UHGV virus genome: UHGV-2005300
DNA length: 38,727 nucleotides
Reading direction: 5' to 3' (one strand)
Source: a virus
This document shows, in pieces, positions 15,434 through 17,349 of this stretch. The position numbers were made by a program, and so were the translations under genes. The stretch's first letter is position 1. The number at the start of each line of letters is the position of its first letter. Below the pieces are notes generated by a model. That model was not told where the DNA came from, ran no database searches, and was given only the letters and a program-made list of their open reading frames with translations.

Positions 15434-16053
15434 GACTCGAAAGCGTAGCTAAATTTCATTCGCCAAAAAGCCCGATGATGAGTGACTCACCACGGGCCAC
15501 GGCTTCTGACTCTCTTTCCGGTACTGATGTGATGGCTGCTATGGGGATGGCGCAATCACAAGCCGGATTCGGAATGGCTGCATTCTGTGGTAAGCACGAA
15601 CTCAGCCAGAATGACAAACAAAAGGCTATCAACTATCTGATGCAATTTGCACACAAGGTATCGGGGAAATACCGTGGTGTGGCAAAGCTCGAAGGAAATA
15701 CTAAGGCAAAGGTACTGCAAGTGCTCGCAACATTCGCTTATGCGGATTATTGCCGTAGTGCCGCGACGCCGGGCGCAAGATGCAGAGATTGCCACGGTAC
15801 TGGCCGGGCCGTTGATATTGCCAAAACAGAGCAGTGGGGGAGAGTTGTCGAGAAAGAGTGCGGAAGATGCAAAGGCGTCGGCTATTCTAGGATGCCAGCA
15901 AGCGCCGCATATCGCGCTGTAACGATGCTAATCCCCAACCTTACCCAACCCACCTGGTCACGCACTGTTAAGCCTCTGTATGACGCTCTGGTGGTGCAAT
16001 GCCACAAGGAAGAGTCAATCGCAGACAACATTTTGAACGCGGTCACACGTTAG
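15430..16053 (+). CDS. Q: Late antiterminator Q
   Basis: 207 aa MRLESVAKFHSPKSPMMSDSPRATASDSL... with zinc finger CRDCHGTGR...CGRCKG, essentially lambda Q. Confidence 0.9.
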   Translation: MRLESVAKFHSPKSPMMSDSPRATASDSLSGTDVMAAMGMAQSQAGFGMAAFCGKHELSQNDKQKAINYLMQFAHKVSGKYRGVAKLEGNTKAKVLQVLATFAYADYCRSAATPGARCRDCHGTGRAVDIAKTEQWGRVVEKECGRCKGVGYSRMPASAAYRAVTMLIPNLTQPTWSRTVKPLYDALVVQCHKEESIADNILNAVTR

Positions 16054-16095
16054 CAGCATGATTGCCACGGATGGCAACATATTAACGGCATGATA

Positions 16096-16124
16096 TTGAC
16101 TTTTTGAATAAAGTTGGGTAAATT
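16096..16124 (+). promoter_or_regulatory. Late promoter pR' (-35 TTGACT, -10 TAAATT) with the qut region
   Basis: 17-bp spacer; sequence context matches lambda pR'/qut. Confidence 0.6.
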
Positions 16125-16130
16125 TGACCC

Positions 16131-16326
16131 AACGATGGGTTAATTCGCTCGTTGTGGTAGTGAGATAAAAAGAGGCGGCGATTACTACCGATTCCGCCTA
16201 GTTGGTCACTTCGACGTATCGTCTGGAACTCCAACCATTGCAGGCTGAGAGGTCTGCAAAATGCAATCCCGAAACAGTTCGCAGGTAATAGTTAGAGCCT
16301 GCATAACGGTTTCGGGATTTTTTATA
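16131..16326 (+). ncRNA. pR'-to-tR' leader transcript (homolog of lambda 6S RNA)
   Basis: Runs from the inferred start after pR' to the tR' hairpin; no ORF expected. Confidence 0.4.
16265..16326 (+). terminator. tR' intrinsic terminator
   Basis: 11-bp stem AATCCCGAAAC / GTTTCGGGATT with an internal structured loop, followed by TTTTTTAT. Confidence 0.7.
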
Positions 16327-16328
16327 TC

Positions 16329-16660
16329 TGTGCAACAGGTAAGAGCATTCTCCCTTATGGGGCTTGGCTTAAATGCACCGAGTGCTCTTATCGTTGTGGC
16401 AGCACAACGATAGTTTTCGTCAGAGTTGGCGACTTTGCGGTTTTTTAGAAACTGACCACAAAGATAAATGCAAACGATGATGTTGTTCTGATGGCGGCGT
16501 AATAGCCTGTAAGTCAGCAAGGTCTTCCGACTCCTTGTAAACAAATTCGGCGCACTGGCCCGGTGTGATTAATAATGGGCACACAACAGGTAAGAGCATT
16601 GAACCCGCAGACCTCGCGGAATTGGTGAAAGGTGCCGCGCAGTGCTCTTATCGTTGTGGT
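16329..16660 (+). repeat. Two copies of a structured element closed by GGTAAGAGCA...TGCTCTTATC stems
   Basis: Shared flanks ACAACAGGTAAGAGCATT and AGTGCTCTTATCGTTGTGG at 16333-16400 and 16575-16660, with different interiors. Confidence 0.4.
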
Positions 16661-17025
16661 GAAGCTCAATGGCGAGCTAGCAGATAGGCGACAGTGAAAA
16701 TACTAGTCATGTAGCTGACCGCCGCGCGTACTGCAATCGGCAGCGCACCGATGGAAGCCGGTTCGATTCCGGCCGCCACAACCCAAACTGATCCGTAGCC
16801 ACTGGCTATCCTGAATTCATCAGTGATAGTTACGCTGCGGCCTTCTACACATGACCTCGTGAAAGCGGGTGGCAAGAGGTTGCGCTAACAACCTCCTGCC
16901 GTTTTGCCCGTGCATATCGGTCACGAACAAATCTGATTACTAAACACAGTAGCCTGGATTTGTTCTATCAGTAATCGACCTTATTCCTAATTAAATAGAG
17001 CAAATCCCCTTATTGGGGGTAAGAC

Positions 17026-17349
17026 ATGAAGATGCCAGAAAAACATGACCTGTTAGCCGCTATTCTCGCGGCAAAGGAACAAGGCATCGGGGCAATCCTT
17101 GCGTTTGCAATGGCGTACCTTCGCGGCAGATATAATGGCGGTGCGTTTACAAAAACAGTAATCGACGCAACGATGTGCGCCATTATCGCCTGGTTCATTC
17201 GTGACCTTCTCGACTTCGCCGGACTAAGTAGCAATCTCGCTTATATAACGAGCGTGTTTATCGGCTACATCGGTACTGACTCGATTGGTTCGCTTATCAA
17301 ACGCTTCGCTGCTAAAAAAGCCGGAGTAGAAGATGGTGGAAATCAATAA
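17026..17349 (+). CDS. S: Holin S (dual-start MKM motif)
   Basis: 107 aa [39 protein letters not shown]... essentially lambda S. Confidence 0.9.

Follow-up and report, generated by a model that had tools for sequence, protein, structure and literature searches.

The interval 16327-16790 of the virus genome UHGV-2005300 (38,727 nucleotides; the window) is a modular array of structured RNAs within a lambda-type late leader. According to our preferred and tentative reading, to which we assign slightly less than an even chance, the core RNA of this array docks on the host tmRNA and probably substitutes a tag template of its own. The core is a central module of ~180 nt (16407-16580) between two scaffold hairpins, which was overlooked by the first-pass annotation. 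In 5' to 3' order, the interval contains scaffold hairpin copy 1, the tmRNA-like module, scaffold hairpin copy 2 and a tRNA-like domain. The features of the region are as follows.

16096-16124, plus strand: late promoter pR' (TTGACT-17-TAAATT), homologous to lambda pR'.
16265-16326, plus strand: tR' terminator (hairpin plus U-run), where the 6S RNA ends; inverted repeat 16265-79 / 16305-19.
16331-16398, plus strand: scaffold hairpin copy 1; outer helix 16331-36/16393-98, inner stem 16338-49/16381-92, insert 16350-80.
16388-16413, plus strand: alternative, terminator-like mini-hairpin TATCGTTGTG-GCAG-CACAACGATA followed by UUUU, overlapping the first bases of the anchor.
16407-16460, plus strand: anti-tmRNA anchor, complementary to E. 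coli tmRNA nt 54-109.
16461-16469, plus strand: A-rich linker AAGAUAAAU, immediately 5' of the resume codon.
16470-16502, plus strand: tag reading frame GCA AAC GAT GAT GTT GTT CTG ATG GCG GCG TAA, encoding ANDDVVLMAA.
16488-16517, plus strand: helix-5-like stem, CUGA 16488-91 with UCAG 16514-17, stop codon in the loop.
16518-16550, plus strand: PK2-like pseudoknot, CAAGG 16518-22 with CCUUG 16533-37 and loop CCGA 16527-30 with UCGG 16547-50.
16558-16580, plus strand: terminal hairpin, covarying stem GCCC/GGGC and nearly invariant loop GGUGUGAUUAAUAAU.
16582-16658, plus strand: scaffold hairpin copy 2; outer helix 16582-87/16653-58, inner stem 16589-600/16641-52, insert 16601-40.
16653-16785, plus strand: tRNA-like domain; closing helix 16653-61/16774-82, D-like arm 16663-78, then a long irregular arm 16680-16734.
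16736-52, 16757-73 and 16783-85, plus strand: small hairpin, T arm and CCA, respectively, forming the 3' part of the tRNA-like domain.

The tR' region is 97% identical to lambda 44406-44805. An alignment to lambda, which had been proposed as a check, is not base-for-base across the interval: the window follows lambda through 16349 and again from 16777 onward, and between tR' and S a cargo of 427 nt stands in place of 130 nt of lambda late leader. Past tR', the lambda late leader (lambda 44787-44935) shares a single copy of the scaffold hairpin with the window and has a GUUGUGCUG...CAGCACAAC domain at the position equivalent to the window's 3' domain. In contrast to the window, it has neither a tmRNA-like module nor a second hairpin, and its 3' domain differs and is without a T arm. 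Because the cargo begins directly 3' of tR', transcription from pR' would reach it only when Q lets polymerase pass this terminator.

The earlier suggestion that the Q-to-S slot carries structured RNAs as cargo agrees with the related phages. Other lambdoid phages keep tRNAs or toxin cargo in this slot. It holds tRNA-Thr and tRNA-Asn in mEp506 and Kapi1, and the Hfq-bound Pas and STnc100 sRNAs map to the Q-to-holin interval, such that PasA, PasC, PasD and STnc100 (RF02076) share their genomic slot with the window element (10.64898/2026.05.13.724894). RNA modules are swapped between phages exactly at their closing helices, and the interval is a mosaic.

Three blocks of the anchor, UAGUUUUCGUC (16411-21), GUUGGCGAC (16425-33) and UUUGCGGUUUUUUA (16434-47), are complementary to the part of the host tmRNA that comprises the 3' half of PK1, the linker, the resume codon and codons 1-6. 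The predicted duplex with tmRNA nt 54-109 has a dG of -51.2 kcal/mol, compared to -19.7 +/- 4.0 for shuffles. Against the whole tmRNA, shuffled anchors gave -30.9 +/- 3.6 and 0 of 100 reached the observed value, while the antisense local alignment score was matched by 0 of 2000 shuffles. Complementarity was scored by local alignment and short-segment duplexes; RNAduplex permits huge interior loops when applied to full-length RNAs. All 57 variants scored, including those of P1, Felix-like, Erwinia and Serratia phages, hit the same host site. The copy in the Klebsiella phage-plasmid pJN2-26 has the same anchor blocks by eye, and served as the 58th variant in the energy comparison. In all 58 variants, the computed pairing of the anchor is stronger for the host tmRNA (mean -30.9) than for the homologous segment of the element itself (mean -17.3). 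The element avoids self-pairing yet retains pairing with the host.

The segment of the anchor that varies in length among phages corresponds to a bulge in the duplex, and the host target is near-invariant in ssrA of 120 Enterobacterales species, in parallel with the invariance of the anchor. The shortest anchors have individual z-scores that are modest (0.3-3). The hairpin upstream of the anchor takes up the first 6-8 anchor nt in its base in several lineages; in the window, the anchor start is partly sequestered in the mini-hairpin listed above. The 5' flank of the module is not conserved and consists of a hairpin, a promoter or CACAAC, depending on the lineage. No conserved partner strand adjoins the module, and its only significant complementarity is to the tag region of the host tmRNA; the loop of the terminal hairpin showed no significant complementarity to tmRNA (22 of 200 shuffles were equally good). 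The complementarity of the anchor to a host non-coding RNA is extended, conserved and beyond chance. Anchors matched to other hosts were not found: among GenBank phages, the Proteus query recovered only host ssrA at prophage ends plus a fortuitous match to the sense tag of pJN2-26, and with the Yersinia query unrelated phages were matched weakly and by chance only (E>=1). The Pseudomonas query in IMG/VR returned almost exclusively host ssrA genes at prophage ends.

These data bear on the possibility that the array consists of independent regulatory sRNAs of the Pas/STnc100 type, acting on host or phage mRNAs, with the tmRNA match as a functionless relic of a captured ssrA fragment that was duplicated in inverted orientation. 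Hfq-bound sRNAs do occupy the same Q-to-holin interval (10.64898/2026.05.13.724894), and in Ackermannviridae and P1 the element occurs together with STnc100-like domains that share its closing-helix architecture; among related loci, STnc100 (RF02076) matched L035 with 48.7 bits and P1 with 33.4 bits. A relic would decay, yet the complementarity of the anchor to host tmRNA has persisted in all lineages despite divergence of the sense arm. Moreover, STnc100 has no match at E<=10 in 15900-17200 of the window, and the inserts of the two scaffold hairpins lack significant complementarity to tmRNA, the sole target compared (24 of 200 and 155 of 200 shuffles were equally good). We consider this explanation improbable.

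The sequence that follows the anchor resembles the mRNA-like part of tmRNA. In alignments with ssrA, the linker retains U-A at -5/-4, equivalent to U85-A86 of tmRNA. The tag frame runs from GCA at 16470 to a TAA ending at 16502, without a start codon or Shine-Dalgarno sequence, and comprises 10 codons plus stop in all 26 nucleotide versions. The third codon position is the most variable (entropy 0.57/0.43/1.02 for the three positions in the 26 versions). Synonymous and non-synonymous codon differences numbered 555:1190 in the tag frame, and the two alternative frames gave 39:1631 and 119:1528, such that synonymous changes were 10-14 times commoner in the tag frame; the other frames are interrupted by stops in 24 and 21 of the 26 versions. 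The tag frame behaves as translated.

Two open reading frames exist on the opposite strand, at 16420-16599 (59 aa) and 16206-16544 (112 aa), and several phage records annotate a CDS there. The probability that either is a real gene is negligible. Indels that are not multiples of three fall in the hairpin stems and the 5' region, RNA covariation is present, the promoters face the plus strand, and the third positions of the tag correspond to second positions of the ORF, which is where the substitutions fall. Both the indel pattern and the codon-position pattern led us to reject the 59-aa ORF.

From the 3' part of the tag onward, compensatory changes were observed in each predicted structure of the module, which was aligned in at least 53 distinct versions. 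By eye, the helix-5-like stem covaries as CUGA/UCAG, CUGG/CCAG and UGAU/AUCA, and the second stem of the PK2-like pseudoknot as CCGA/UCGG, CCAG/CUGG, CCAA/UUGG and GUCG/CGAC. Double changes in the first PK2-like stem occur in 13, 9 and 5 sequences, and the stem of the terminal hairpin takes the forms GCCC, UCCCUGA, GGCGGGAG and AUCC. PK1, PK3 and PK4 were not recognised in the module; hairpins occupy their place. Matches of the window to the Rfam tmRNA models are sub-threshold, the best reaching 26.3 and 20.2 bits where the gathering score is 47. Judged from these sequence features, the module appears to be tmRNA-derived, without an acceptor or tRNA-like domain of its own.

It shares with tmRNA (SsrA, RF00023 and its clan) a GCA alanine resume codon without a start codon, a 10-codon tag of the AND....(A/V)A type, the U-A at -5/-4, a stop codon in a helix-5-like loop and a downstream H-type pseudoknot like PK2. 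It differs in its length (~180 nt vs 363), in the absence of the acceptor stem, tRNA-like domain and G3:U70, in its 5' segment antisense to host tmRNA, and in scoring below the Rfam gathering threshold without an ARAGORN call. We found no Rfam family for the module and, in literature searches, no published description of it.

Based on these sequence relationships, we infer pairing and template substitution in vivo. A discrete RNA, with its 5' end at or slightly upstream of UAGUUUUCG, would be expected. Its anchor would base-pair with the host tmRNA, and directly 3' of it would come the linker, the resume codon, the 10-codon tag frame and the helix-5-like and PK2-like structures. The phage RNA would thereby dock on alanyl-tmRNA-SmpB, mask the host tag template and place the phage template next to PK1/P2, and rescued ribosomes would add the phage-specified tag in place of ANDENYALAA. 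We hold more tentatively, as a possibility somewhat short of an even chance, the general claim that a broadly distributed class of phage RNAs reprograms ribosome rescue in trans by annealing to the host tmRNA template and supplying a replacement resume codon and tag frame by PK1. Stalled ribosomes would then be brought onto the phage template by SmpB and the charged tRNA-like domain of the host, and the proteins rescued would end in a C-terminal tag chosen by the phage. This model demands that a ribosome be loaded with an mRNA-like domain that is not covalently joined to the tRNA-like domain, and we know of no precedent for a tag template supplied in trans. In the long-anchor class, PK1 would have to open in its 3' half for the modelled pairing, and this matters for tmRNA function.

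The same antisense evidence fits a pure anti-tmRNA RNA, which would sequester tmRNA or trigger its cleavage (e.g. by RNase III acting on the long duplex) and end tagging late in infection; its tmRNA-like 3' part, undecoded, would help to reach tmRNA-SmpB or the ribosome, or act as a decoy. AgvB and AsxR of EHEC, prophage anti-sRNAs that sponge Hfq-dependent sRNAs, offer a precedent for such an RNA. They too are phage RNAs that base-pair with a host non-coding RNA, whereas the window RNA differs in its tmRNA target and its decodable frame. A further precedent is found in the mycobacteriophage DS6A, whose tmRNA fragment consists of the tRNA-like domain only and is thought to inhibit tmRNA (PMC4131195). 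A pure anti-tmRNA RNA leaves the coding signature unexplained, i.e. the 10 codons plus stop, the synonymous bias and the U-A before the resume codon. We regard it as unlikely.

The first-pass annotation had described two repeated units of ~70 nt, with arms that pair with one G-U and with different interiors, and each of these observations stands. Exact copies of CAACAGGTAAGAGCATT lie at 16333-16349 and 16584-16600, those of AGTGCTCTTATCGTTGTGG at 16381-16399 and 16641-16659; exact repeats of 17 and 19 nt inside 1.1 kb far exceed chance. The arm GGTAAGAGCATT pairs with AGTGCTCTTATC, with one G-U, and an outer 6-bp helix (TGCAAC or CACAAC with GTTGTG) lengthens the stem to ~18 bp with an internal mismatch. 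Among 59 distinct copies from other phages, 13 of the 18 pairs show compensatory changes and 85.9% of cells are paired, a value reached by 0 of 500 shuffles (slid controls 42-56%). The inserts differ in sequence and in length (31 nt at 16350-16380, 40 nt at 16601-16640). They are hypervariable, with 69 different inserts in 75 loci, and the insert of copy 2 also occurs in HK75, HK629, E212, JEP4 and PhiR5_2. What had been described as a duplication is two instances of a modular scaffold, which lambda has once, rather than a local tandem duplication. The hairpins probably help to excise the RNA from the long late transcript, presumably through RNase III, to which their geometry fits, and/or bear extra small-RNA cargo.

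A T-arm-like sequence followed by an acceptor-like 3' strand had also been noted, with coordinates that prove right within a few bases. The T arm consists of GCCGG (16757-61), TTCGATT (16762-68) and CCGGC (16769-73), followed by CGCCACAAC (16774-82) and the CCA. No cloverleaf could be built at first, and ARAGORN indeed calls no tRNA or tmRNA at the element in the window and 13 related loci. In contrast, the MFE fold of 16651-16788 is cloverleaf-like with five arms (-50.8 kcal/mol, z -2.6). In 6 homologues, 94% of cells pair and double changes occur at 5 pairs, two of them in the T stem. The tRNA-like piece is real, while the proposed covariance-model search returned nothing at the element at the Rfam gathering score; in the related loci it returned only ordinary tRNAs and one STnc100. 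A local match of 20 bits connects the domain to the Rfam tmRNA and tRNA clan. Compared to a true tRNA, a 55-nt irregular arm replaces the anticodon arm, and the closing helix has 9 bp instead of the 7 bp of an acceptor. The helix stacked on the T arm and followed by CCA probably aids release by RNase P, to which its geometry likewise fits, and/or carries extra small-RNA cargo.

With a T arm, a D-like arm, a long P2-like arm and a 3' CCA downstream of the tag, in a gene order (tag first, tRNA-like at the 3' end) roughly like that of one-piece tmRNA, the array could be regarded as a self-contained unusual phage tmRNA, in which tag module and aminoacylated tRNA-like domain share one transcript. 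We consider this very improbable. Position 3/70 of the domain is U3-A70 instead of G3:U70, and ARAGORN is negative. The domain forms a closed unit located 3' of the tag module; RNase P would therefore sever it from the module. Furthermore, HK75 has the tRNA-like domain without the tag module, whereas C1, lambda-type, Felix-type and P1 elements have the tag module with different 3' domains or none. Minimal versions, in Felixounavirus fjerdesal and Erwinia phage Omen, consist of their own promoter, anchor, tag, PK2 and a hairpin, with a tRNA gene directly 3'. They have no tRNA-like domain, and hence their RNA cannot itself be charged. A one-piece tmRNA that uses GUUGUGGC (16393-16400) as acceptor 5' strand was rejected as well: siphoviruses carry this box inside the promoter spacer, and other lineages lack it upstream of the module. 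Integron attC, CRISPR-repeat, retron and Y-RNA candidates were dropped after motif inspection and had no Rfam matches.

Of 5426 complete E. coli genomes, 137 carry the module, as do 758 phage records, including P1, lambdoid, Felix-O1-like, N4-like, Ackermannviridae and other phages. Between unrelated phage families in these 758 records, nucleotide conservation amounts to 75-95%. In some GenBank phage records, the homologous stretch is annotated as a hypothetical-protein CDS. The first-pass annotation had suggested decayed tRNAs; the corresponding explanation, decayed tRNA or tmRNA genes and recombination scars, all functionless, would suit the absence of a called tRNA or tmRNA and the mosaic interval with its module swapping. 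Against it, compensatory changes occur in all stems, conservation extends across unrelated families, and lytic phages drive the element from a strong promoter of their own. The scaffold and the tRNA-like domain are under selection, because they are conserved with compensatory changes across unrelated phage families. Decay thus has a very small probability.

Several known systems resemble parts of the array or of the proposed docking mechanism. In the two-piece (circularly permuted) tmRNAs of alpha-proteobacteria and cyanobacteria, function is likewise split over two base-paired RNAs. Both pieces derive from one gene and pair via P1 and P2, whereas the second piece of the phage system would be the complete host tmRNA, paired at the tag template. 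Full phage tmRNAs are known from Bxz1-like phages and Bacillus phage G (PMC4131195). Together with the DS6A fragment, these are likewise phage-borne, partial or complete tmRNAs presumed to interfere with or supplement host trans-translation; the same study reports neither enterobacterial phages nor forms with an mRNA-like domain only (PMC4131195). STnc100 resembles the 3' domains described here in its layout, with a UGGUG/CACCA helix around hairpins, the last of which abuts the 3' strand. The Pas and STnc100 RNAs are described as Hfq-bound mRNA regulators, and no link to tmRNA is described (10.64898/2026.05.13.724894).

Taken together, the sequences suggest that numerous enterobacterial phages interfere with ribosome rescue in bacteria. 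Bacterial cells rely mainly on trans-translation for ribosome rescue and quality control; the pathway is a drug target, and several phages depend on it. If our reading is true, a tmRNA-pairing RNA with its own tag frame would be a new viral control of host proteostasis. We infer the benefit to the phage from sequence: such an RNA could shift the set of rescued proteins that undergo degradation late in infection, or could blunt defences that act by cleaving mRNA or tRNA. It would be the first split tmRNA with one part from a virus and the other from its host, present even in P1 and lambda relatives, and would account for a conserved part of the late leader in lambdoid phages and of the P1 ban operon. 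For annotation, it would define an RNA family spanning 758 phage records and 137 complete E. coli genomes; part of these at present carry an erroneous hypothetical-protein annotation for it. A natural means of retargeting tmRNA tags would come with it.

The array of RNA parts at 16327-16790 lies between tR' and the holin gene S of a lambda-type prophage, which makes up the window. In a direct comparison, the window agrees with lambda as far as 16349 and once more from 16777, and in between 130 nt of lambda are replaced by 427 nt. This swap marks the array as late-leader cargo, and rules out the base-for-base alignment with lambda that the first-pass annotation had named as the outcome speaking against its reading. 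Transcription of the array requires Q-mediated read-through of tR' by RNA polymerase. The features concerned are:

16053: end of the Q gene
16096-16124: pR' promoter (97% identity to lambda)
16265-16326: 6S/tR' hairpin (97% identity to lambda)
16407-16580: tmRNA-like module, with anchor (16407-16460) and tag frame (16470-16502)
16653-16661 with 16774-16782: closing helix of the tRNA-like domain, 9 bp
17026: start of the holin gene S
16206-16544 and 16420-16599, minus strand: spurious ORFs over the RNA array
38652-38726, minus strand: tRNA-Arg(CCU) gene at the extreme end of the window, probably the prophage attachment site

At a relaxed Rfam threshold, all tmRNA matches remained sub-threshold; one of them covers 16448-16502 and reads as the tag frame GCA AAC GAT GAT GTT GTT CTG ATG GCG GCG TAA (ANDDVVLMAA). 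We found 26 nucleotide versions of the tag, each with 10 codons and a stop, which also encode ANDDLMLMAA, ANEEMYLAVA, ANDEQFLAVA, ANDSEVLMAA, ANDNTFLAVA and others. Entropy at the codon positions was 0.57/0.43/1.02. In the tag frame, synonymous and non-synonymous codon differences stood at 555:1190; the other two frames gave 39:1631 and 119:1528, and stops interrupt them in 24 and 21 versions out of 26. The frame has neither a start codon nor a Shine-Dalgarno sequence, and the module retains U-A at -5/-4, equivalent to U85-A86 of tmRNA. These sequence patterns indicate that selection acts on the tag frame as coding sequence, and that the frame behaves as a tmRNA template would. A 59-aa minus-strand ORF was excluded by this coding behaviour. 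The homologous RNA region is mis-annotated as 'hypothetical protein', and even 'polyubiquitin-A', in the GenBank phage records H60, H61, H96 and H99.

Our alignment of 53 distinct module versions, drawn from 75 loci, has an invariant AGUUUUCG near the 5' end, a conserved GCGACUUUGCGG, and a conserved A-rich linker ending in AUAAAU, followed by the tag frame. The stop codon lies in the loop of a conserved stem, as in tmRNA helix 5. An H-type pseudoknot covaries in stem 1 (CAAGG/CCUUG, UGAGG/CCUCA, CGGGG/CCCCG) and in stem 2 (CCGA/UCGG, CCAG/CUGG, CCAA/UUGG, GUCG/CGAC), and the terminal hairpin combines a covarying stem with a near-invariant loop, GGUGUGAUUAAUAA. The 5' flank is variable (hairpin, promoter or CACAAC box). 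The minimal versions (Felix-type and Erwinia) comprise nothing beyond a promoter, the 5' segment, the tag, the pseudoknot and the hairpin before an ordinary tRNA gene directly 3', and phage HK75 has the tRNA-like domain and lacks the module. The module thus lacks the defining part of a tmRNA, a tRNA-like domain of its own, and it reaches none of the detection thresholds; it is therefore no tmRNA.

By BLAST, 16409-16602 has 75-94% identity across hundreds of unrelated phages. In total, the module was present in 758 GenBank records, held by lambdoid and P22-like prophages, P1, N4-like phages, Felixounavirus, Kolesnikvirus and Ackermannviridae; further holders are ~108-122 kb phage records or contigs, Klebsiella phage-plasmids and several siphovirus genera. 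Of 5426 complete E. coli genomes, 137 carry it, always without annotation. In lytic phages it stands under its own consensus promoter, inside or beside tRNA clusters. The copy in H99 (OR544125.1, Acinetobacter phage vB_AbaM_AB4P2), an odd host label, is 90.8% identical to the E. coli prophage copy. P1 (NC_005856, ~68883-69076; locus L157, 2497-2690) carries the module, with tag ANDDLMMVAA, in the leader of the C1-controlled ban operon, directly 3' of the annotated 'dicF-like region' terminator, with trnA and trnT lying further downstream. Two more conserved structured elements share the array's transcript in siphovirus locus L001 (3375-3470), and likewise in L003: between the array and tRNA-Met, close to the latter, come a perfect 13-bp hairpin (CTTAATATCCAGC/GCTGGATATTAAG) and a likely H-type pseudoknot (AAGCACGCTGGCAATGCTTAAACCAGC).

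The anchor is colinear with the reverse complement of nt 54-109 of host tmRNA, with E. coli K-12 ssrA as reference. Within it, UAGUUUUCGUC is complementary to tmRNA codons 3-6 (GAC GAA AAC UA), GUUGGCGAC to the -1 triplet GUC, the resume codon GCA and AAC, and UUUGCGGUUUUUUA to the PK1 3' strand and loop 3. The predicted duplex reaches -51.2 kcal/mol, versus -19.7 ± 4.0 (minimum -34.3) for 500 shuffles; in the whole-tmRNA comparison, shuffles gave -30.9 ± 3.6 and 0 of 100 matched the observed value. The antisense local alignment score was 47.5, versus 24.4 ± 3.9 for shuffles, and none of 2000 scored as high. All 57 variants scored, including those of P1, Felix-type, Erwinia and Serratia phages, share the same host site. 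In 58 of 58 variants, pairing is stronger with nt 73-110 of host tmRNA (mean -30.9) than with the homologous stretch of the variant's own tag region (mean -17.3). Among phages, the anchor differs in length and sequence in one segment only, and this segment forms the duplex bulge. Across 120 Enterobacterales species, the target in host ssrA is near-invariant, in keeping with the invariant anchor; covariation with divergent host tmRNA was not found for Proteus/Yersinia anchors in GenBank phages or for the Pseudomonas pattern in IMG/VR. The rest of the array lacks significant complementarity to tmRNA. In some lineages, parts of the anchor are sequestered in cis. A perfect hairpin of 10-11 bp at 16388-16413, with UUUU behind it, resembles an intrinsic terminator; it would cover the first anchor bases, and hence could be a switch or attenuator.

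Because a decodable tmRNA-type template without an acceptor is joined to predicted anti-tmRNA sequence, these data are most simply read as template docking on host tmRNA. The phage RNA would dock on alanyl-tmRNA-SmpB, its anchor annealing exactly over the host template start and hiding the host resume codon, and would present its own resume codon, resulting in a phage-specified tag. The phage strand would exit the duplex at the PK1/P2 end, with the resume codon 12 nt on in the long-anchor class and ~17 nt on in the Felix class; this spacing is comparable to the 11-nt host linker, a resemblance that fits the docking geometry. In the long-anchor class, however, pairing would partly unfold PK1, which counts against docking, and the alternative is that the phage RNA merely blocks or destroys tmRNA. 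Under template docking, the module would combine the role of the coding piece in a two-piece tmRNA with that of a phage anti-sRNA. To our knowledge, a tag template supplied in trans is without precedent.

The two scaffold hairpins (16331-16398 and 16582-16658) flank the module. The duplicated arms with differing interiors noticed in the first-pass annotation are indeed present, as exact repeats of 17 nt (16333-16349 and 16584-16600) and 19 nt (16381-16399 and 16641-16659) around unrelated interiors of 31 and 40 nt. Lambda itself has one scaffold hairpin (44787-44870), so the window holds two instances of a module rather than a local duplication. Each copy folds into a long hairpin, in which an unpaired A separates the outer helix of 6 bp from an inner stem of 12 bp with a conserved U-U mismatch. 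Among 59 distinct copies gathered from other phages, 13 of the 18 pairs show compensatory changes and 85.9% of cells are paired (0 of 500 shuffles as high; slid controls 42-56%). G-to-A changes give G-U pairs on the plus strand only, identifying the scaffold as a plus-strand RNA structure. The outer helix covaries with sequence 3' of the hairpin (CACAAC/GUUGUG, ACUAUC/GAUAGU, GAAAUCUGG/CCAGUUUUC). The tips are hypervariable, with 69 different inserts of 22-213 nt at 75 loci, some containing T-arm-like hairpins, and may be additional cargo. In other lambdoid prophages, the second tip holds an insert of 172 nt, with a type I hammerhead at its start (L008, 7921-7967, minus strand; also L017, L025, L029, L036 and L039). 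The catalytic core of this hammerhead is perfect, but its Rfam score of 24.7 bits (E 6e-4) stays below the gathering score of 34. In lambda (NC_001416, 44787-44935; L285, 382-530), the hairpin, whose insert type is that of phage C1, and a domain closed by GUUGUGCUG...CAGCACAAC lie just 3' of tR' and overlap the 3' end of the annotated orf-64.

The T-arm sequence reported previously is real (16757-16773), and ARAGORN made no call at this tRNA-like piece. The fold of 16651-16788 has five arms (-50.8 kcal/mol, z -2.6): the closing helix encloses four others, namely a D-like arm whose loop has GG, an arm that is long and irregular, a small hairpin and the T arm, and CCA follows. We compared six homologues, from HK75, PhiR5_2, Akira and three metagenomic phages: 94% of cells are paired, and double changes occur at five pairs, two of them in the T stem (GCCGG/CCGGC, GCAGG/CCUGU, GUAGG/CCUAC, GGUGG/CCACU). 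This contradicts a decayed tRNA; 16653-16785 is a conserved tRNA-like domain, without G3:U70 and without an anticodon arm. HK629, E212 and JEP4 (L281-L283) have an identical hairpin insert, followed by a different domain within the same closing helix. Modules are exchanged exactly at GUUGUGGUGAA and CGCCACAA, suggesting that the conserved helices serve as joints in recombination. Still other 3' domains are present in lambda and phage C1, and one related type resembles the STnc100/PasD prophage sRNAs, a family known from the same genomic slot (10.64898/2026.05.13.724894). An STnc100 match reaches the gathering score in Ackermannviridae locus L035 (2223-2436), and P1 has an STnc100-like sequence below threshold (L157, 3694-3813; 33 bits). 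In L035 and L016, several tRNA-like modules, consisting of closing helix and T arm (e.g. UUGCGGUG...GUCGGUUCGAUUCCGAC-CACCGCAA), lie ~330 nt upstream and 700 nt downstream of the tmRNA-like module; ARAGORN did not call them, and one is precisely deleted in L108. In lambdoid context, the 3' domains have a helix stacked on a hairpin, then CCA. Plausibly, the ~18-bp hairpin stems are RNase III signals and the tRNA-like or minihelix-like 3' domains RNase P signals, which would cut the RNA out of a transcript that must run on into the lysis genes.

Hence, the earlier interpretation holds for structured RNAs in the cargo slot, but not for decayed tRNAs. A 2014 tmRNA census reported phage ssrA in mycobacteriophages and Bacillus phage G only, and just the tRNA-like half of tmRNA in phage DS6A (PMC4131195). 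We found no description of the present element in the literature and no Rfam family, and there is a sizeable chance that the mechanism is genuinely new. It offers a concrete, testable link between common phages, such as P1 and lambda relatives, and host ribosome rescue.
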